DNA from: Octopus vulgaris
Lineage: Eukaryota
DNA length: 64,000 nt
Assembly (NCBI GenBank): GCA_951406725.2
Contig: OX597828.1
Coordinates: forward strand, 42,098,001 to 42,162,000
Reading direction: 5' to 3'
Part shown: positions 3,642 through 62,353 of the stretch, one piece after another
Numbering within the stretch: position 1 is the first letter of the stretch
How the letters are laid out: each line of letters starts with the position of its first letter
Program-made: the position numbers and the translations under genes
Notes under the pieces: model-generated
What the model was told of the DNA's origin: nothing
Seen by the model: the letters and a program-made list of their open reading frames with translations, nothing else
Databases searched by the model: none

Positions 3642-3646
<5 letters not shown>

Positions 3647-3957
3647 TAGTACTTATTTTATCAATGTACATTTAAACACATAAGAGGCATCCATCATAGG
3701 ACTCCTTGCACGCTAGAGAGAACAGGTAAATTCCAAACCACTATTGGGGATAAAATTTCGAAGGGTATGACAAATAAAAACATTTACCATCTATTTTTCA
3801 TTCCCTTTGGAATTTAACTATTCTCTCTCGCGTGCAAGGAGTCCTCTAATGGAAGCCACTTATGTGTTTAAATGTACACTGTATTTATATGAATAATATA
3901 TAGTCTAGGCCACTGGTAATGGAAATTTCAAATATTTCTGGTTACCATTTGATATTA

Positions 3958-3960
<3 letters not shown>
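3642..3960. repeat. fold-back (inverted repeat) element between (TA)n tracts, hairpin family copy 1
   Basis: Arms about 3642-3737 and 3806-3907 are reverse complements; CTAGGCCACTGG sits at the end of the right arm. Confidence 0.75.
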
Positions 3961-13849: not shown

Positions 13850-13906
<57 letters not shown>

Positions 13907-13916
13907 TTATAGAAGG

Positions 13917-13967
13917 AGCTCCTACAGGACTAGAACCGTTTCATTCAAAAGAAATCATCAGGAAGCT
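13917..13967 (-). ncRNA. type I hammerhead ribozyme motif (inverted copy)
   Basis: Minus strand AGCTTC-CTGATGA-tTTC tttt GAAt-GAAA-CGG ttctagtc CTG-TA-GGAGCT. Confidence 0.6.
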
Positions 13968-14290
13968 AGTAGACAAGAGTTATATGTGAATATATGTGAA
14001 TATGCGGGTGTGTATATGTGTATGTATATATATATGTAGATGTACAAGTGAGAGTCTCCCCACTTACCTAAAACTTTTCTATTTATATATTTTTTATTTT
14101 TTTATTTTTCTATTTTTTTATTTTATTTTTTTATTCTTTTATTTATTCTTTTATCTACTTTACCACCGATTCCTTTGACCACTCCCCTAATAATGACAGT
14201 TTTGCGCCATGCCTACCCCCAAAAAAGTCCCCCACCACCACCCATTAAACCTGCCTAAATGTATAAATGCCAAAACAACTCTTGTCTACT

Positions 14291-14341
14291 AGCTTCCTGA
14301 TGATTTCTTTTGAATGAAACAGTTCTAGTCCTGTAGAAGCT
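14291..14341 (+). ncRNA. type I hammerhead ribozyme motif
   Basis: Stem I AGCTTC/GAAGCT, core CTGATGA (14297-14303), short stem II TTC/GAA, GAAA (14316-14319), stem III ACAG/CTGT, GUA cleavage triplet ending at 14335. Confidence 0.7.
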
Positions 14342-14423
14342 CCTTCTATAAAATAAATTAATTTACTCTGCTATGTATTGAGTACCTTATTTACTGTGGT
14401 TAACCCCGACTCAACCCGGGACC

Positions 14424-14454
<31 letters not shown>

Positions 14455-16829: not shown

Positions 16830-17179
16830 TATATATATATATATAGTGAGACATTGCGAACTGCTGTTCATATTGATTTTATATATACACATTTGCGAAT
16901 CATCACCAAATCATCCAATAATCTGAATGGCGAAAGCATAAATACAAATAGCGAAACAGGTCCGTAAAAAGCCGAACAATCGAGCGAGCTTAACTGATGA
17001 GGCGGCGGAAATAGCCGAAACTGACGTCAGTATTAAGAATTCTCGATCGGCACTTTCCGGACAATTAAGTTCCCTATTAATGTACATGTTTTCATTCATG
17101 TGCGTTAACTACAACATTAGAGAGGTTTAGTTCTTATTTCTAGCAATGTAGGTGTTTCCCAACACCCTAGTCACATTTA

Positions 17180-17228
<49 letters not shown>

Positions 17229-17481: not shown

Positions 17482-17690
17482 AGTCGATTCAAATAAATAA
17501 TCAATAAAAAATAATCAATTAAAAAACCGATAATAAAGTTAACGGTCAGCAAGAGGACGTGTACAAGGAATGTATTAGCTCTAAAAGAGGGAGTTTGACG
17601 TTTCGAGCTTAGCTCTTCGTCAGAAAGGAGTAAGGGAAAAGTCCAATGAATGAAAAGAAATCAGCAACAGCACGTTTGTGGTTACATATA
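17482..17690 (-). mobile_element. short Penelope-like element with canonical minimal hammerhead core (17594-17626)
   Basis: Minus strand TTT-CTGACGA-A-GAGC-taa-GCTC-GAAA-CG-TC-AAA. Confidence 0.65.
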
Positions 17691-23655: not shown

Positions 23656-24220
23656 TGACTGTAGATGTTCATATATGTTCGTATATGAAACTATACAATG
23701 CAGCTGTATATACCAGCAAAATGTTACCGCTTGAAACCCTAACGAGGCAGTAAAAATACACAGAACTAGATGGGAATGTATGTATGTGTGTTTGTGCGTA
23801 AGTATGTGTATGTATGTACATGTATATATACATATGTGTGTATGTGTGTGTGTGTGCGTGTGCATGCGCTCGTGTGTATGCGTATATATATGTAGGTGCA
23901 GGAGTGGCTCTGTGGTAAGTAGCTTGCTTACCAACCACGTGTTTCCGGGATCAGTCCCACTACATGGCACCTTGGGCAAGTGTCTTCTATTTTAGCAGGA
24001 TGGGACAGTAGCAGGATGGGTCGAAACGATCGTTGTACAGAATAAAGATCAATACCAAATCCATCTTCTGGTTACTTAATCAACGGAAATATACTCTAAC
24101 TGCGGATGTCACCAGATAGCCTAAACTGTACTGTGCTTTTTACTCATCACTTCAACACACTAATTGACAATACCCAATTGTCCAAAATATAACATGCATA
24201 CATACATACTTATATATATA

Positions 24221-24586
24221 TATATAAAATTTAAAGGACTGACCACTAAAAGTGGACAGTCAATATGCTATATATAGACGTCAAAATCGCTATTTTCCAC
24301 GAATAATGTGTTCTCAAGAAAAAACTCAGCAAAAGACCAAAGTGTAAAAAATAAGCAAGACAAATGAAAATATACGAATATTCCGTATATTTTCATTGAG
24401 TTTTTTCTTGGGAACACATTCTTCGTCGAAAATAGCGATTTTGACGTCTATATCTAGCATATTGACTGTTCACTTTTAGTGGTCAGTCCTTTAAATTTTG
24501 TATGTAAAAAATATTTTAATCTTCGGATTTTTTAATATGCTAGGCCACTGGTTTTAATTGATTAATATCAATTTCTACCCTTATTC

Positions 24587-24592
<6 letters not shown>
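24221..24592. repeat. fold-back element between (TA)n tracts, hairpin family copy 2
   Basis: 24221-24328 pairs with 24397-24506; inner hairpin at 24363-24397; AATATGCTAGGCCACTGG at 24534-24551. Confidence 0.85.
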
Positions 24593-24661
<69 letters not shown>

Positions 24662-26131: not shown

Positions 26132-26506
26132 TCAGGTTATTGATCGACGCTTGACATTCTCACGGACGGTTTTGGTATCCAGTGCAATGTTCTTCTTCCT
26201 ACGTTCATTGATCCAAAGGGCTAATGCAGACTCCATCCTTACGATGGCCTTATTGCGGGAAGTTACCATCCTTTTCGCTGTCTTGTTAAATATCACTTTT
26301 GGCGCCGCCCTTATATTTCTTTCGTCTTCCTTCATGTAGCAAACGGTAGATTCAGTGATGCCGTAATGCTGGCCAACAACCGCATACCTTCTCCGTTCCT
26401 TAAGCATGTCGAGGAGTCTCACCTTCACTGCTATAGCAAGCATCTTCCTTTGGTGCTTGGGTTCACTGCCAGAAGCCTTAGAAGGTGCAGAACATTTGGG
26501 TGACAT
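26132..26506 (-). pseudogene. Tigger-type transposase N-terminal fragment (HTH-psq + CENP-B HTH)
   Basis: RKMLAIAVKVRLLDML...HYGITESTV...RMESALALWINERRKKNIALD resembles TIGD/Tigger DNA-binding domains. Confidence 0.8.
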
Positions 26507-27891
26507 TGTAGGGTTTGAAATAAATTCATAATTCTACATGCAAATGAAAAATTACATCACACCCTCGCTTCCTGAGTTTCGTTTTCCATGCAGTATGTGC
26601 GATTCTTTGTTTACTCACCTACGGTACATTTTGTATTTTCTTTTGATATATTTTAATTAATGTGTTATACAGTGCAGTAATGTATTTTCATTTATTGATT
26701 TATTAATTTTTAGGCGTGAAAATATTTATTTTAGCACAGAAATAATTAAAATCTACAAAAAGTATAAATACCTATCGGCCACATACTTAGGTGTCCGTGA
26801 CATAAATTTACATATATTAGCCAGAAAAATCCGCAATATACTGAGGGCTCGATTGGTGATCCGCGATATGGCGAGTGATTACTCTAAATCTAAATGCACC
26901 GAGTCTTGTGTACGGTCAGGGAGTCGACCTATCGATCGTAAAGTTGTGATTTCGATTTCTGGAACGTGTGGTGAGTCGCGTCCTTGAGCAAGGCTCTTCA
27001 TTTCACGTGTAGTCAACTCTACCGCAAACGGATGCTGACATAGCTCGCTATACCCGCGGCCTTTGCTTTTCATTTGCGATCCTTTGTCAAGAAAGAGGGA
27101 ACAAAACATTCTTACATTCGTTTTCTCTGTGCCCTTTTAAGGGTCGCGCGCACGTGACAACAGTCAATGGCGTTATGTAAAAGACTACTACTACTACTAC
27201 TACTACTACAATAATAATAACGATTTATTTAGGCCTCCGGAAGCAGGGACCTAGAAATAAGATTGATATAAATAATAATAATAATAACAACAATAATAAT
27301 AATAATAACTGGGGAAAGGTCATAATAGGGTTTGCTGCTGGTGTTTTATTTTTGTTGTTTTGTTTATATTTTATCTTTATTTCAGAAAGAGCAAAGAAGA
27401 AAGATGAGACATTTTACAGTAGTAACGAGACCGAGGGGGTGGGGGATTAGGGGAAGGAGTATGCGGATAGAGCGAGAGAGGAGAGAGAGAGAGAGAGGAG
27501 ATGGTTGCATTAAAGAAGGTGACAAGGGTGGGGAGAGGGCTGATTAGACGAAATTATGAAAATGGCGTAGAGGAAGAGAGAAGGGTAGACAAGCAGTCTA
27601 TGTGTGTATGTGTGTGTGTGTGTGTGTGCGTGTGTGTGTATATGTGTATGTGTGTATGTGTGTGTGGTAAGAGTAGATGCGAACCAAATGGAAATGTGAA
27701 CAAGCGTATATCTATCTATCCACATATACGTATATATATATATATATGCATATGTATACATATATAATATATATGTACATATATACATACATATATATGT
27801 ATATATACAATGTATATATGTGTATATATATATATATATTCAGTATATATGTATACATGTAGATATATGCATATATACAAATATACATGTA

Positions 27892-39700: not shown

Positions 39701-39940
39701 CAGAGATTATACCTGTGAAGCAGTCACATATTGAGGGACCCACCGACCAAGTTCAGACACTTGCTTGTTTCCGAAAAGGTGTTTTATGACCAAAGAGTGA
39801 AATGAATGGAGCTGTTTTGCTAATTCTGATGCAGTCGGTTTTGAATTTTCTTCGGTTACACTTTTCAGAAATCCAATATTGACATCACTTGGTCATCCAG
39901 ATAGCGGAGAATCTACCAGCGAAAAATTTGCCAGATAACT

Positions 39941-40419
39941 GGCCAAAGCATCTCGAAAGAGTCCAGAAGCTGGCTACCCGCATGGTTCATGGTCTCAAGA
40001 ATTTGTCTTATGAAGAAAAGCTGAAGACGCTCGACCTTTATTCTCTAGAAAAACGCCGCCGCCGTGGTGATCTCATTCTCGCTCGCAACATCATAAGCGG
40101 AAAGTGTAACATCCCGAAAGAGCTGTTCTTCACTCCTGCTCCAGAGCGTCGGCTGCGGGGTCATTCCGAAAAGCTCTACCTGCGGCGATTTCATCTCAAT
40201 CGAAGGAGAGGAGCTTTCTCCGTCCGGGTTGCGGATCCGTGGAACAAGCTGCCAGACGAGATGGTGAAGATGCCGACGACCGCTTTGTTCAAAGCCTCCC
40301 TTGACCTCAAGTGGCCTGAACTCTTTACATGAACACCACCCTGTATATAACTCCATGTCCCCCTACATGGCCTTGCTTTTTGCTTTTGAGCCAAAAAATT
40401 AACTAACTAACTAACTAAC
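39941..40419 (+). mobile_element. 5'-truncated CR1/L2-clade LINE 3' end with (TAAC)n tail
   Basis: LERVQKLATRMVHGLKNLSYEEKLKTLDLYSLEKRRRRGDLI...PWNKLP. Confidence 0.9.
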
Positions 40420-42302: not shown

Positions 42303-43445
42303 CATCGTGGACTTGCCTTGAAGAACTAACACACCACACTTCTTCAATGAGACTCTCTTTAACTCAATCAGAAATTCCGGTATTTTTTGTGGGGGTGGCA
42401 AGAGGGTGAGAGGAGAGAGTGAAGCGTTGACCCCTAATAAATTTATTGATAGATGGTTGACAAGTGATGAACATGGTTGTCAAGTCAATGATGAATCTGA
42501 AGGGGTTTGTTACTGGCCCAATGCTCTGCTGTTTTAATGGATGGGGACGCAGGGCAGTTATCCGAGACCTCGCGAGTCTAGGGGTCCAATTCTAGTCTCT
42601 GTACGGTAAATACAGTTAGTGTGTGTGTGTGCGTGCGTGTTTGCACCCGTGTTCGTAATTGCATATCTATCTTTCCGCATATATATATATATATATATGC
42701 TAGGTCGCCCTTGAGTGCTACTGGTGACATCTAACCCAGTACAACATGTCGCATGGTCGGGTCATCGGCGACTAAACTGGCAACCCCATGAGGTTTGCTC
42801 GAGGAGGAGAGTAATTGTTGGACACCCTGCGGGACGAAAAATAAGACCCGTCGAAGGGCGGAAGAACTACTGTGTAGTTAACGGCCAATTCAATATGTAC
42901 CTTGCCGCAGTGAAGTGCCTGTATGTTCCACTGACCTAGAGAGCTATGCTGGAGGGAGAGAAATCTTCAGGCAGGTCGTACCAGGCCAGATAGGTCGAAG
43001 GATAGGAGGCAGACAAACCCTTAACGACAATAAATCGAAGCATCGGCAGCAGGTCGTGGATTCAGTTATTGGCAGGACCTAACAGATCAGATTCCTGCCT
43101 TTGAACTAGCAGGATGTCATGCAGTCGATCTTGAATATAAGACAATGGATGAGAACCTAATATTCCTAGTTAGATGGCAACAGCGGGACCACATGCAGCA
43201 GCTCCCTGTGATTCCTATAGTATGTGCAACCGAAACCCCTAGAGGCGTTATGGGACGACCTAGGTGAGAGATAGATGGATATATATATGTGTGTGTGTAT
43301 GTGTGTGTATGTGTGTGTGTGTGTATAAAGAGAGGAGAGAGAGGGCCATAATTTTGAAGTGCGGGGCCCCATTTCTGAATTGTCTGTAGGACCCTCTACT
43401 CTACGCTGAAGATTGATGGTTTATGCTTCGTGTAGTACACCAGTG

Positions 43446-46491: not shown

Positions 46492-48184
46492 TGTTTCTTT
46501 ATTAGCCACACAGGGCTGCACACAGATAGAACAAATTACAAGGTAGAGCTTTTCTTTTGAAGGTTTAAGAAAGAAAAAAAAAAAAAAAAAAGGAAGGGGG
46601 AGTTTCGATCAAAAGGGATCGTAAAAGGAGAGAAAGAGGACAAAAAAAAGGGGGTTTAAAAAAAAAGGGGGGGGGGGAAAAAAATTGATCAATAGGGATC
46701 GTTATCACAGAAATGTCAATATGAAGTGTAAAGGGGAGGACAGGTGAGGTTTACCCGTGCAAAGAAAAGCCTACGGAAAAGACCACGGTAACCTCGGTCA
46801 ATGATGTCACATTTTATATTTCTTTTTTTTTCTTTTTGCAAATAAGCAACTCTCTGTTTTCGATTTCTGGGTTCATAGGACTATGCTCAAGGTGGCTTCG
46901 TCATTCATACGTGCCATTCTTGCTACATTCACCCATCTTTTTTAAAACATTCGCTAGACAAAACTTGCCTCTCTACTCTCACTTTCCTTTTCAAGTGGTA
47001 CTTGAAGAAGTTGATGAGAGATTGACCAGAGAGGAAAGTGTTTGTCTCCAATCCTTTCAGACGTGTCCACCAGATACATTCTTTCGCCATAGCCACAAGG
47101 ATGATGAAAATAGCTCTTCCTTCCCGTTTGAAGGAAGGAGGCGTGACAATATTGACGATAGACTCAGCTGATAAACCGACTCGTCCCACACGTGACAGCA
47201 GTTGTTCGACATAAGCCCACAGGTCGGAAATTGTTGGACACTGAACGAGTGCGTGCAGAACGGTTTCGTCGCTCTGACCGCATCTCGGGCAGGTCGGCCC
47301 CGTGTTTCTCGAGCCGTGTCTGTAGAGCTTATCCCGAACGGGTAGCGCTTCTCGGTAGCACTGCCAGGCCAGGGATCTCTGGAAGTTGTCCATGGGCCCT
47401 GGCCCGAAAGTCGTCCTGAACAGGCGGGTCAGGTACTCCTCGTCGACGTCCAGGTTCGCCCCGAGCTCGTCGTCGTACCTCCCCTCCACTAAACCCCTAT
47501 AGAATGCTTTGGTTGTGTTGAAGTCACTTAAGGTCGACCCAGGACGGCAGAGTTGCTTGAGAGCAACGCGACACTCGCGGTGCCATTCGCCCTTCCTCGG
47601 CCTCTTTTTGATCCACGACTGCAGTTCGGTCATGGAGACGAGCTGCGGGAAAGCGTGCCTCACAAACGGCGACCACACCTGTTCACCGTCGTCTACATAG
47701 AGCCAGAGATGCCGCAGTCTCAGCGCGTGTCTGCGCATCATCAACCACGGCATGCCCAGCCCTCCTTTTAACGGGTGTTGACAGCAAATGGATCGCCTGA
47801 CCATCGGGACGCATCCTTTCCACAAGAAGCGAAAGAGGATGCGTTGTAGTTTGGTGATGGTAGGGTCGGGACAAGGTACGACGGTCAGGCGGTAGTAGAT
47901 GACGGACGCGATGTACGTGTTCGCCACCTCCGCTCGACCTTTTAGGGACAGTTTCCTCTCGGCCCATTGCCGGGCGAGAGTGACCACCCTACTCGTTATC
48001 TCGTTCCAGTTCTTCTCCACTTGGAGGTCCGGACCAAACCAGACCCCGAGCAACTCAACCGGGCCGTCGGTCCAGCGTCCCACGACGGACCGACGGCCCG
48101 GTTGAGTTGCTCGTGTTCTGGTTTGGTCCGGACCTCCAAGTGGAGAAGAACTGGAACGAGATAACGAGTAGGGTCGGGACAAGG

Positions 48185-48186
<2 letters not shown>
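46490..48186 (-). mobile_element. 5'-truncated Tx1/L1-clade non-LTR retrotransposon in a (GATA)n tract
   Basis: ORF with KLSLKGRAEVANT, GGLG and zf-RVT CPRC...ETVLHALVQC; 3' UTR ends AATAAAGAAACAT-(ATCT)n. Confidence 0.9.
46929..48182 (-). pseudogene. Tx1/L1-like ORF2 C-terminal fragment (RT thumb + zf-RVT), still an open frame
   Basis: 417 aa ORF in the track; the first ~30 aa come from the fold-back rearrangement. Confidence 0.85.
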
Positions 48187-48240
<54 letters not shown>

Positions 48241-48286
48241 AAGCTAGAGAGATAGATAAATAGATAGATAGATAGATAGATAGATT

Positions 48287-48352
<66 letters not shown>

Positions 48353-48357
48353 CAGAC

Positions 48358-48420
<63 letters not shown>

Positions 48421-48429
48421 CAGACAGAT

Positions 48430-48592
48430 ATGTTTCTTTATTAGCCACACAGGGCTGCACACAGACAGAACAAATTACAAGGTAGAGCTTTTCTTTTGGG
48501 GGTAAAAAAAGGGGGTTGGTTTTCGATCAAAAGGGATCGTAAAAGGAAAGAAAGAGGACAAAAAAGGGGAGGATTTAAAAAAAAAGGTGGGG
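48430..48592 (-). mobile_element. second, heavily truncated copy of the same Tx1-like 3' end in (GATA)n
   Basis: ATGTTTCTTTATTAGCCACACAGGGCTGCACACAGA is identical to the sequence from 46491 onward. Confidence 0.9.
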
Positions 48593-52760: not shown

Positions 52761-54101
52761 GACCAATATTGTACCCCGGGGATGCGGATACCTTGGAGGT
52801 ACCCCATGGAGTAACGACCGTACCCTGTATAGTTACGGGCTACCCTTTGGCAAGGCATAGAACCCGTTCAGTTATTTTACCAGGGATACGGTAAAGATAT
52901 GGGACTGCAGCAATGTGGATTGTGAAGAGGTAGCGAAAGAGCTCAACTGAGCCAAAGGTGACTGTTACATTGATGGTGAACAGAGGAATCCCAGAAGATC
53001 AACGTTTAGGCTCACCAAGCTCTACCAAAAGAGTAGGGGCAATGTCCGTGGTTAAGTGATATCAGCAAATAAACGACTCAAGATTCCAATTCAAATATGA
53101 CGGAGTCACGGAAATCTGTGCCAGTAGCGCAACCAGATGAAGATGAACATTGACTTTCAGATTTTGGCACATTGCCAGCAATTCCGGGGAAGGCGGTAAG
53201 TCAATTATATATACCGCAGTGTTCAACTGGTACCTATTTTATCGACCCCGAAAAAATGAAATGCAAAGTGATCCTCGGTGGAGTATGAAAATTGCTAATG
53301 GGGGGTTGACGGTTCGCATCCCATCATTCACTTGTGCTGAGCTTTAAGGTTCGAGCCAATCTCTTTCCGTGTTAGTATAACGGTAAGGAAGAAGAATAAA
53401 AAAAAGGAGCGTAATGAAAGACAGAAAGACAGAGAGAGGGGGGGAGATGAGGACAAGGAAATAGAGAGAAAGAGAGAGGTAAATTGGTGAGGTGAGTTAA
53501 ATATCGAAAGACAGAGTGACAAAAGCATAAAGAGGTGTGTGTGTGTGTGTGTTAATTCCCTTTTTCTCTTCTTCACTTTCTCTATCTGTCTCTCTCTCTT
53601 TCTCCGTCTCTTTCTCTTTTCTCTCTCTCGTTGCTCACACGTGACCATCATCCATCTTTCTTTTCCTGCACGATGTTCTAAGGACAGGACGTCTTCTATC
53701 TCTCTCTTCTATCCTTTCTCTTTCCAAAGAAAATATTTCTCCCAGCGTTCACTATTTTCCTCTCATTCTGGTCTAACAACCCTCCATGTTTGTTTTCGTT
53801 CGGTTTCCTTGTATGTTTCCACTGTCCTGTTTTTGCTCCCCTGTTTTGACCCTCCATAAATCCAAAATTTTATTTTGGAATTTATGGGAGCAACTGTCTT
53901 CGAAGACTCATATTGTCATTGAATGGTCGAAATGAGGAATAGATAGACAGCCGACAACTCATGAAGGGTCGTTCTCCGTGTTACTCGTCCTGTTTTCCAA
54001 TTTTTCTCTCTCGCTGTTTGCGTATTGAATTCGTTTGTTTCCGTACTTCATGTTGTTTACACAGTCGGTGGCGTCCTGTACCCATATATGCATATATAAA
54101 A

Positions 54102-54480
54102 ATATTAGAGGGAACCCACTATGTGGATATCCTTATGCTAGAAATAGATCCGCTATGTTCTTACTACTAAGAAATGTTCTCAACAAAAATTTAGCAAAAC
54201 AACCAAAACGTAATCGAGCAAGACAAAAGAAAAAACAATAAAAATAATCCATATTTTTATTGCTTTTCCTTTTGTCTTGCTCGATTACGTTTTGTTTTTT
54301 TGCTAAATTTTTGTTGAGAACATTTCTTAGTAGTAAGACCATAGCGGATCTATTTCTAGCATAAGGGTGTCCACATAGTGGTTTCCCCTAATATGTATAT
54401 AATACAATTTTACTAAACCTTCAGATTTTTATATGCTAGACTACTGGTGTGAAATCGATTTTAATTAAATTAATATTTAA
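54102..54480. repeat. fold-back element, hairpin family copy 3
   Basis: 54102-54246 pairs with 54252-54394 (loop ATCCA); TATGCTAGACTACTGG at 54432-54447. Confidence 0.9.
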
Positions 54481-54671
54481 TTCCTGGGGCTGGCCGGATC
54501 GGAGCGATCTCAAGATTAATCAGCTGAAATTGCTACGATGATCAGGTTCTTGACTGAAGATTGAAGGCTTCGAATGTCGTCCCGTCCGTTTTTTGTATCG
54601 TCTTCTAAATGTTTTACGTTCTTGTCCCAGTTTGTATTTTTCTACATAAAATAATATATATATATATATAT

Positions 54672-57632: not shown

Positions 57633-59225
57633 TATATAATGCCTTATGACACTGTCGATATGACTTCTGAAGCAAACCATATTTCAGGTTGTACCAGTCA
57701 CTGTGATATACTCCACATACGACAGTTTTTGTGACATGCACAAATTTGTTTATGACACAAGCGGTATAATCAATTATTTATGTTACGCTCAATATAATTT
57801 AAGTCACATACCAAATTATTCACACTGTTTTCTATGGTGCATACAATATGAATCATACTTCATAGTTACTATTTATGCTACTGGATTAAGTATTTCCTAG
57901 CGAATAGAACACATGTTGTGGTCGATGGAGTCCACTGAAGCCCAGCAAAAGTCACCAGTGGTGTTCCTCAGGGGACTCTCTTGGGCCCGCTTCTCTTTAT
58001 AATTTACATAAACGAACTTTCCAGCGTCGTAAATCACGGCAAAGTGAAAATAATTGCTGATGACGCTAAGCTCCAGCAAATCATCAATAAAGAAGACCGA
58101 ACTCAACTCCAGTGTGATCTATATGCTGTGAGTCAAAGGGCAGACAAAAATAAAATGCAACTAAAGGAGGGAAAATTTGAGCTGATGCATTTTGGAAGAA
58201 AGTCTATACTAAAACAGTCATACTCTCTTCCTTCAGGGGAACCGCTCACAGCATCTAATGACATCAGAGACCTAGGTGTAATTGTTTATAACAATCTCAA
58301 TTGGAGTGCCCACATCAACAATAAGGTCAATATAGCTCGCAGGATGCTATATCGACCTTATTGTTCTTAAGACCTGGATCTTAAGAATCTTCCGGTCCAG
58401 AGAACAAGATGTCATCATTCCACTTTTCTCCTCCTTTGTACGGCCAAACCTCGAATACTGCTGCCCCTTGTGGTCTCCCCATACAAAACAAACATCTCAA
58501 AAATTCAATCACCCCAGAGGGCACTCAGTAACGAATTGAAGGCATGACTGATCTCGATTACTGGCACCGTCTTGAAACTCTACTCTCTCTAGCGCCGTAC
58601 GATGTGGAGAATATACCGCCAGCATTGCCCAAACGACCTGAAGATTAGTTTCAAGGTTCATCCAAGGCTGGGACCACGGGCCATCCGTCCCCTGCCCAAT
58701 TCAGGATCACAACATATAGATACATTGCAACACAATTTCTTCTCCTCAATTGTCCCAAAACTGATCAAAGAGAAAAAGGATCCCATCGCCTTTAAACGGA
58801 GTTTGGACAGATTTCTTCAAGGAACACCAGACAAGCCACCCATACCTGGATACAACTCACTCAACAAGAACTCACTACTTGAATGGACCATAAACAAAAC
58901 TTGACTTAAACAGGATTTAGATAATCCTATTAGTTGGTGCTATTAAGTCAGACATGGCCTGGACCAATCTTTGGTCGAAACATATCTAAGTTTTACCTAA
59001 GTTTTATGATATAATTTATCAAATACATAATTATATTTGTTATTATGTATGACACACTGTATTATGATGTCTACAATATTATTTTTGGCTCATACAAAAA
59101 TAATTTCATATCACATACGCAATAGTTTTCGCATATTATATACGGCAATTACAATATCATTCATGGCACAAATCATATGAATTTATGACACATACAAAAT
59201 TATTTGTGGCATATACAATATAATT
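56645..59225. repeat. degenerate AT-rich minisatellite (~21 bp, TTTATGA(C/T)ACATACAATATAA) split by a LINE
   Basis: The motif TTTATGAYACATAC recurs at 56645-57850 and 59005-59225. Confidence 0.7.
57880..59004 (+). mobile_element. 5'-truncated, decayed CR1/L2-like LINE (RT domain to 3' end)
   Basis: VTSGVPQGTLLGPLLFIIYINEL...IADDAKL...RDLGVIV...VRPNLEYCCPLWSP; stops and frameshifts; CTAAGTTT repeat tail. Confidence 0.9.
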
Positions 59226-62175: not shown

Positions 62176-62353
62176 AGTTGTCCCCTTTTGTATCAACTAG
62201 TTGTCCGGATGTTTTTCGTTCTTGTCCCATTTTGCATTTTATTTTATATACATATGTATATATATATGTGTTTCTCTCTCTCTCTCTCTCTTTATATATA
62301 TATATATATACAAACGATCGACTAGTCAGTTGAATAGATATTTAACCAAATGA

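Follow-up and report, generated by a model that had tools for sequence, protein, structure and literature searches.

Fold-back elements with a one-sided tail of predicted structure in the Octopus vulgaris genome: probable Penelope-like remnants without a canonical hammerhead

The window considered here, the whole stretch of 64,000 nucleotides of Octopus vulgaris contig OX597828.1 that was analysed, is animal DNA rich in microsatellites, with SINE-like repeats and broken LINE fragments. Three long fold-backs had been proposed in it by a preliminary description, and these indeed exist. Their paired arms lie at 3662-3737/3806-3881 in copy 1 (68/76 aligned positions identical), at 24227-24328/24397-24498 in copy 2 (97/102) and at 54095-54246/54252-54401 in copy 3 (141/152). 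Copy 1 comprises an inverted arm at 3642..3795 (minus strand) and a direct arm at 3796..3960 (plus strand), the latter carrying a short shared motif at 3905-3916 and a terminal hairpin before stopping at (TA)n. In copy 2, the inverted arm (24227..24381, minus strand) begins right after a (TA)n tract, is 5'-truncated and has no tail, while the direct arm (24382..24498, plus strand) lacks about 38 nt near 24400 relative to the left arm and continues into a one-sided tail of 93 nt (24499..24591, plus strand), which again stops at (TA)n. Copy 3 consists of an inverted arm at 54095..54246 (minus strand) and a direct arm with tail at 54252..54482 (plus strand), in which the closing helix P1 starts at 54356 and the motif occupies 54436-54447. 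Each fold-back combines a short inverted arm with a longer direct arm, the two being separated by a tiny spacer or none, and the direct arm runs on into a tail that is missing from the inverted arm. An inverted 5'-truncated copy adjoining a direct copy is the arrangement that characterizes insertions of Penelope-like elements (PLEs). The (TA)-rich setting holds for copies 1 and 2, which are flanked by (TA)n, but not fully for copy 3, which has no (TA)n on its right and only a short TA-rich patch on its left; apart from this short patch in copy 3, the (TA)n target without a discernible TSD that is typical of the Naiad group of PLEs is found here as well.

The arms had been described as strongly different between copies. 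This does not apply to copies 2 and 3, which are homologous (68% over 181 columns, E 6e-13), with none of 1000 shuffles as good; judged by this alignment, the two copies are one family. Copy 1 is collinear with the others but only weakly similar: 10 and 16 of 1000 shuffles do as well when the motif is included, and 110 and 486 of 1000 when it is left out; copy 1 is a distant relative at most. The pivots of the three copies fall within about 30 nt of a single aligned position. No further copies were found in the 64-kb window.

The shared motif, CTAG(G/A)C(C/T)ACTGG, is present at 3905, 24540 and 54436; in copy 2 it reads CTAGGCCACTGG (24540..24551, plus strand). Three matches stand against 0.36 expected when one mismatch is allowed, and none of 100 shuffles reaches three, for a pattern that was derived from the same three copies on which it was scored. 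The copies do not end in the motif, contrary to what had been claimed: 35-45 nt follow it, including an A/U hairpin located at 24557..24572 (plus strand) in copy 2. A hairpin of differing sequence occupies this position in all three copies.

In copy 2, the direct arm and tail fold as originally outlined. P1 (24454-24463 with 24534-24543, plus strand) encloses a bulged hairpin at 24464-24488, an A/U linker and a UUCG hairpin at 24518-24529, and this arrangement is the predicted minimum fold (z = -3.5). The alternative pairing of AGTGGT with GCCACT was confirmed as written and forms part of a long-range helix between TAGTGGTC at 24477-24484 and GGCCACTG at 24543-24550 (plus strand). For copy 3, the same topology with different bases had been suggested. 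The topology is retained and the stem of the outer hairpin is indeed different but paired, whereas the P1 sequence is identical to that of copy 2; consequently, there is no P1 covariation between these two copies. The long-range helix of copy 3 lies at 54376-54383 with 54439-54446 (plus strand). The fold z-scores of copies 3 and 1 are -1.3 and -0.25, respectively. When duplexes are compared with shuffled partners, P1 and the long-range helix are matched by 0.05% and 0.15% of shuffles in copy 2 and by 0.3% and 2.8% in copy 3, the two copies not being independent for these helix statistics. In copy 1, neither P1 nor the long-range helix exceeds chance in the collinear register, in which 63% and 70% of shuffles do as well. 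Its left (inverted) arm contains TAGTGGTT at 3743-3736, which is deleted from the direct arm and is a perfect 8-nt partner for the motif; since this partner sits further upstream, the helix register of copy 1 may differ.

The long-range helix occupies the 3' strand of the inner hairpin, and the two are therefore mutually exclusive, which allows either a switch or a partial pseudoknot. In the latter case, the long-range helix, P1 and the stem of the outer hairpin could coexist, with their 3' strands contiguous. In pseudoknot-free folding, the long-range pairs have near-zero probability. The RNAalifold consensus of the three copies is the long-range helix, one pair of which appears as U-G, U-A and C-G. 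The covariation counted across the three copies is, nevertheless, not above that of shuffles (383/500).

Evidence from beyond the window comes from one mapping of public contigs onto positions 24100-24600 at 80% likeness, which gave 3409, 3065 and 3275 matching contigs from runs X1, X2 and X5. The mapped contigs are short. Summed depth rises from 50-90 on the unique flank to 0.8-1.2 million near the 3' end; the 3' end exceeds the unique flank by a factor of 1.2-2.3 x 10^4, which drops to 0.7-4 x 10^3 some 230 nt upstream. Summed depth is not a copy number and is read as an order of magnitude only; on that scale, the family comprises thousands of relatives, on the order of 10^4 copies. Among the 15 of 52 joints listed, ten connect the left arm to different right-arm positions, four are strand changes and one lies inside the right arm, each at a depth corresponding to a single locus. 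The varying right-arm positions joined to the left arm indicate that arm length differs in other copies. Loose ends leading into TA-like sequence occur at 24503 (three contigs, run X9) and at 24583-24585 (4/4 runs), and thus two 3' ends are distinguished. Run X9 may be RNA and was left out of any argument on expression. Relatives continue beyond 24378 in 35, 12 and 32 contigs, so the element is longer than any copy in the window. Variable arm junctions and two 3' ends argue against a MITE, and the contig pattern fits target-primed retrotransposition with 5' truncation rather than the fixed symmetric ends of a MITE.

The same contigs give information on the fold, although their variants are unphased and 40 of 67 variant rows are listed. 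Among those listed, five variants (24434, 24461, 24465, 24470 and 24544) preserve or strengthen plus-strand pairs, while four (24462, 24463, 24467 and 24543) break pairs unless compensated, the variant at 24543 being present in 25-90% of depth. The linker takes seven substitution rows and several indels among the rows listed, and none of the listed rows falls within 24545-24562. Variants of the G-U type and the UUCG loop point to a plus-strand RNA. A conserved, structured 3' RNA of the plus strand in the family of copies 2 and 3 is thus moderately supported by the predicted folds and the listed variants. A coding function of the tail was rejected: in copies 2 and 3, none of the three frames is open, and the family carries indels of 1-3 nt.

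The Penelope-like reading of the layout, put forward in the preliminary description, is supported by the inverted 5'-truncated arm, the one-sided tail, the (TA)n target and the variable junctions of other copies, and a PLE origin of the fold-backs is very probable. An insertion unit made of an inverted truncated copy and a one-sided tail is described for PLEs, with a bias for (TA)n and no canonical hammerhead in Naiads, in the available portion of PMC8557442, and the same layout for Adineta PLEs in that of PMC3846280. In the anole PLE (PAc; PMC11167929, available part), the protein cuts both strands of AT-rich DNA and extends them. Its reverse transcription starts at two internal sites bounding the tail, cleavage by the hammerhead is not required in vitro, and the same paper cites the Penelope tail as needed for endonuclease recognition. 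A linked RT/GIY-YIG reading frame was sought around the fold-backs; Pfam on 147 window ORFs gave unrelated LINE fragments only, and the remnants are too short for an ORF. These broken LINE fragments and a transposase-like HTH fragment occupy 46929-48437 (minus), 57939-58904 (plus), 39883-40332 (plus) and 26132-26533 (minus); the LINE-type matches are zf-RVT (E 5e-8) and RVT_1 (E 4e-8), together with an RT 3' piece without a Pfam match.

Taken as a whole, the reading that is somewhat favoured describes the fold-backs as head-to-head remnants of an abundant family, the pLTR end of a PLE without a canonical hammerhead, with the fold of the tail serving as a binding and start signal for the RT-endonuclease. 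By analogy with the PAc model (PMC11167929, available part), the endonuclease would nick both strands of a (TA)n tract, and reverse transcription would start twice inside the RNA, at the two tail ends. The first start would fall in the single-stranded UA-rich linker within P1, at about 24500 in copy 2 and 54401 in copy 3, and the second at the end of the tail, about 24591 in copy 2. Both cDNAs would stop early and be joined head-to-head, leaving the inverted arm without a tail and the direct arm with one. P1 and the stacked long-range helix are predicted to clamp the tail on the upstream hairpin and to present the UA-rich linker to the (TA)n primer, while the 12-mer at the helix junction is predicted to be recognized by the protein, in RNA or DNA form.

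A role of the motif in recognition or initiation, considered separately, seems moderately probable. The closing guess of the preliminary description, that the motif is a self-cleaving or RT-recognition RNA, divides accordingly in two: RT recognition fits published PLE biochemistry (PMC11167929, accessible text), and the ribozyme has no positive support. The predicted tail fold matches no catalogued RNA family and is more likely an enzyme handle than a new self-cutting RNA. Such a handle would bear on what marks PLE RNA for its own RT-endonuclease, why there are two internal starts, and how lineages without a hammerhead manage (PMC8557442 and PMC11167929, available portions). Furthermore, a pseudoknot beside the template would, as we infer, parallel telomerase RNA, telomerase RT being a sister of PLE RTs. 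The roughly 10^4 copies, together with several diverged subfamilies, offer natural variation sufficient for a decisive covariation test, and the defined RNA of 140 nt is amenable to assay.

While the layout of the fold-back insertion is already known, the structured tail is apparently undescribed. Literature searches found no published description of the motif, and Repbase, Dfam or the O. vulgaris repeat library may hold the family already; the annotation of this species lists 31 recently active PLE families (PMC13282606, available part). Motif words are absent from the published Naiad, Chlamys and Hydra consensi by an exact-word search, which can miss words across the 70-letter line breaks of the Craig supplement (PMC8557442, available portion), and no motif was seen by eye in 53 of the 54 Naiad 3' ends in the accessible supplement of that paper. 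In an unscored comparison by eye, two short A/T-rich blocks in the 3' end of Naiad_Omin, from the same portion of the source, look similar to copies 2 and 3. The pattern of P1 plus motif and that of the tail each gave no match in the genome contigs or viral contigs of the searched collection. In metagenome contigs, P1 plus motif matched four loci (two distinct sequences) with 44-53% GC, lacking the rest of the element and with profile E-values of 0.4-9, and these were treated as chance; one of the two sequences (L001 1465-1554, minus; L003 125-214, plus) has the pattern and an internal hairpin and nothing else, and is probably a chance match too.

Among known PLEs, Naiads are alike in their (TA)n bias, inverted 5'-truncated copy, one-sided tail and occasional core-only hammerhead strings, and in numbers of 3' ends that reach tens of thousands, as described in the available part of PMC8557442; they also lack a canonical hammerhead, as do the fold-backs within their visible 250 nt. 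According to the same portion, their tail measures 30-40 nt, versus 93 nt here, they have N-terminal GIY-YIG, CxC and DKA motifs, whereas the present element is known without an ORF, and the two intact octopus Naiads end differently from the fold-backs. Hammerhead-bearing PLEs (Penelope/Poseidon, Neptune, Hydra and PAc; PMC11167929 and PMC4209133, accessible portions) share the insertion unit, a tail between two RT starts and a structured pLTR. In contrast to them, the fold-backs have no complete hammerhead, and the first proposed start lies within the closing helix and not downstream of a ribozyme. Bivalve and hemichordate Naiads have their own conserved, apparently structured 3' motifs, and in Acropora and octopus Naiads GAAA precedes CUGAUGA (supplement of PMC8557442, available part). 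Hammerhead-less PLEs may hold several undescribed RNA folds.

It is doubtful that the family does carry a hammerhead, either as a U3-A8 core about 70-90 nt upstream of P1 or as a canonical one just beyond the truncation, with the 3' fold as an accessory switch. The earlier statement that no hammerhead core is present was too strong: a UUGAGAA...GAAA string at 24294..24317 (minus strand), in the left arm of copy 2, has the U3-A8 core order (TTGAGAA, a 3-bp stem, GAAA), which occurs in one of six arms and in none of 5000 shuffles. For this string, however, helix I cannot be built. Such a variant would be a vestige, or else a 2-bp helix I would complete it while P1 keeps it from acting. U3-A8 cores and 2-bp helices I are reported in PLEs (PMC4209133, accessible text) and core-only matches in Naiads (PMC8557442, accessible text), and the pivot within about 30 nt in three copies looks as if it marked a defined RNA 5' end. 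However, many relatives continue past the pivot. The canonical register puts a G at the cleavage position, and the other register requires one additional A and gives an unstable fold (+2.0 kcal/mol, helix probabilities <= 0.01); no NUH site at the string places helices I and III in register. Moreover, in copy 3 GUAA stands where GAAA would be expected, the string is absent from copy 1, and a bulged rod hairpin formed by copies 2 and 3 accounts for the same bases. No canonical hammerhead occurs in the visible 250 nt of the pLTR. Non-circular hammerhead permutations (PMC10085705, available part) require the same blocks and so do not rescue the U3-A8 string. A minus-strand CUGAAGA in the loose ends of relatives was also rejected, as it represents the complement of the small hairpin and is not intact in copy 2 or copy 3.

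Splicing offers a different, unlikely explanation, in which the remnant would be a 5' leader that retains an intron; by hiding the 3' splice site (CTAG|C), P1 would ensure that the RNA is copied in its unspliced form. P1 begins at a pyrimidine-CTAG site, and this site aligns across the three copies. A TTTRAC word lies 14 nt upstream in copies 1 and 2, and a GTAA donor-like site is found near the pivot in copy 1 (GTAAAT at 3787 in the inverted arm, 75 nt upstream of a pyrimidine-TAG acceptor-like site) and in the loose ends of the family (about 126 nt). At C24454, 89-99% of depth retains the base, whereas its partner G24543 is variable. There is also a precedent in Drosophila virilis, where a 75-nt intron in the pLTR of Penelope ends at hammerhead helix I (PMC2377424 and PMC4209133, accessible portions). 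Against this, copy 3 has no branch-like word, and 48-70% of shuffles of the T-rich arms also produce acceptor-like sites; splice-site masking therefore stays a minor rival. If P1 did mask a splice acceptor, it would provide a testable cause of intron retention in PLEs.

It is quite unlikely that this PLE lineage has replaced the hammerhead by a new class of self-cleaving ribozyme, represented by the motif. Its position in the pLTR end is where other PLEs have hammerheads, the nested fold is compact and could stack a pseudoknot on P1, three diverged copies have retained the 12-mer, and the inverted arm of copy 1 may terminate at CTA|G. Comparison of the direct arms with Rfam, proposed earlier as a check, returned nothing relevant, only microsatellite and hairpin noise, with no match at gathering score. 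This negative result is weak and leaves room for a new ribozyme, because the textbook PLE hammerhead at 16994 in the same window scores only E 1.9. Nevertheless, nearly all conserved bases are paired, whereas the strands at the junctions consist of A/U runs that vary and carry indels; a catalytic core would not be expected to look like this. Simple motif screens, with patterns from general knowledge, and Rfam gave no core arrangement of twister, pistol, hairpin, HDV or hammerhead type in the motif, and the lack of covariation above shuffles likewise stands against a ribozyme. In HDV-like ribozymes, a hairpin loop pairs just 3' of the closing helix, forming P1.1. The hairpin loop of the fold-backs could pair at the same place; however, there is no G-U at the cleavage site, no P2 closure, no J4/2 and no Rfam match, and the hairpin inside P1 sits directly next to the 5' strand of that helix and 45 nt away from the 3' strand. 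Cleavage is also dispensable in comparable systems, given that Naiads amplify without canonical hammerheads (PMC8557442, available part) and PAc needs no cleavage (PMC11167929, available part). A high-copy PLE lineage with an undescribed pseudoknotted self-cutting RNA, switched by the tail pairing back on the upstream hairpin, would be similarly improbable.

The remaining alternative, a (TA)n-targeting MITE, a foldback DNA transposon or a Helitron-type non-autonomous element with the helices as DNA signals, is very improbable: long inverted arms with tiny loops would suit it, but symmetric fixed TIRs with a TSD are not what the copies have, since one arm bears the conserved 93-nt extension pairing with internal sequence, junctions differ between copies, depth drops toward the 5' side, and the G-U-type variants and UUCG loop favour a plus-strand RNA. 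The hairpin 10 nt upstream of CTAG/CTAA presumably resembles a Helitron end; a CTRR end after a hairpin was rejected, as the conserved sequence of highest depth runs 45-50 nt beyond CTAG. TA-targeting TIR elements are reported, and MITEs and Mutator-like foldback elements of this kind likewise have long inverted arms in (TA)n (PMC4486113), whereas the fold-backs have an asymmetric tail, variable internal junctions and 3'-biased depth.

Several other repeats stand out in the window. The element at 13898-14425, cited earlier as a hammerhead-bearing comparison and delimited here as 13900..14427 (plus strand), is an unrelated PLE-type fold-back with a 69-nt tail. CUGAUGA and GAAA are present in it, but a 4-nt offset separates the closing helix from the core, which makes it an atypical hammerhead. 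The closing helix, within 14278-14345, is a CTAG/CTAG pairing after a pyrimidine run, 4 nt off CUGAUGA. A second PLE-type remnant at 16846-17183 (plus), between (TA)n tracts and without an inverted arm, contains a canonical type I hammerhead (core 16994-17037) with CUGAUGA, a GC-closed helix II, a palindromic helix III, a GUA site and a 5-bp helix I. A further CUGACGA...GAAA core with a 3-bp helix II lies at 17623 (minus). At 42697-43280 (plus), a repeat after (TA)n has a perfect 7-bp helix opened by G-U (GGTCGCC with GGCGACT) and no Rfam match; we take this helix to be comparable to HDV P1 at an RTE-type leader. Right after copy 3, at 54483-54655, there is a different repeat end with CTGAAGA...GAAT and then a T-rich end at (TA)n, which recurs at 62186-62260 (71% over 75 nt) and is possibly another PLE end stacked in the same tract. 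To the left of copy 3, at 53854-53965, a 34-nt hairpin is accompanied by a GAAA...CTCATGA string in permuted hammerhead order.
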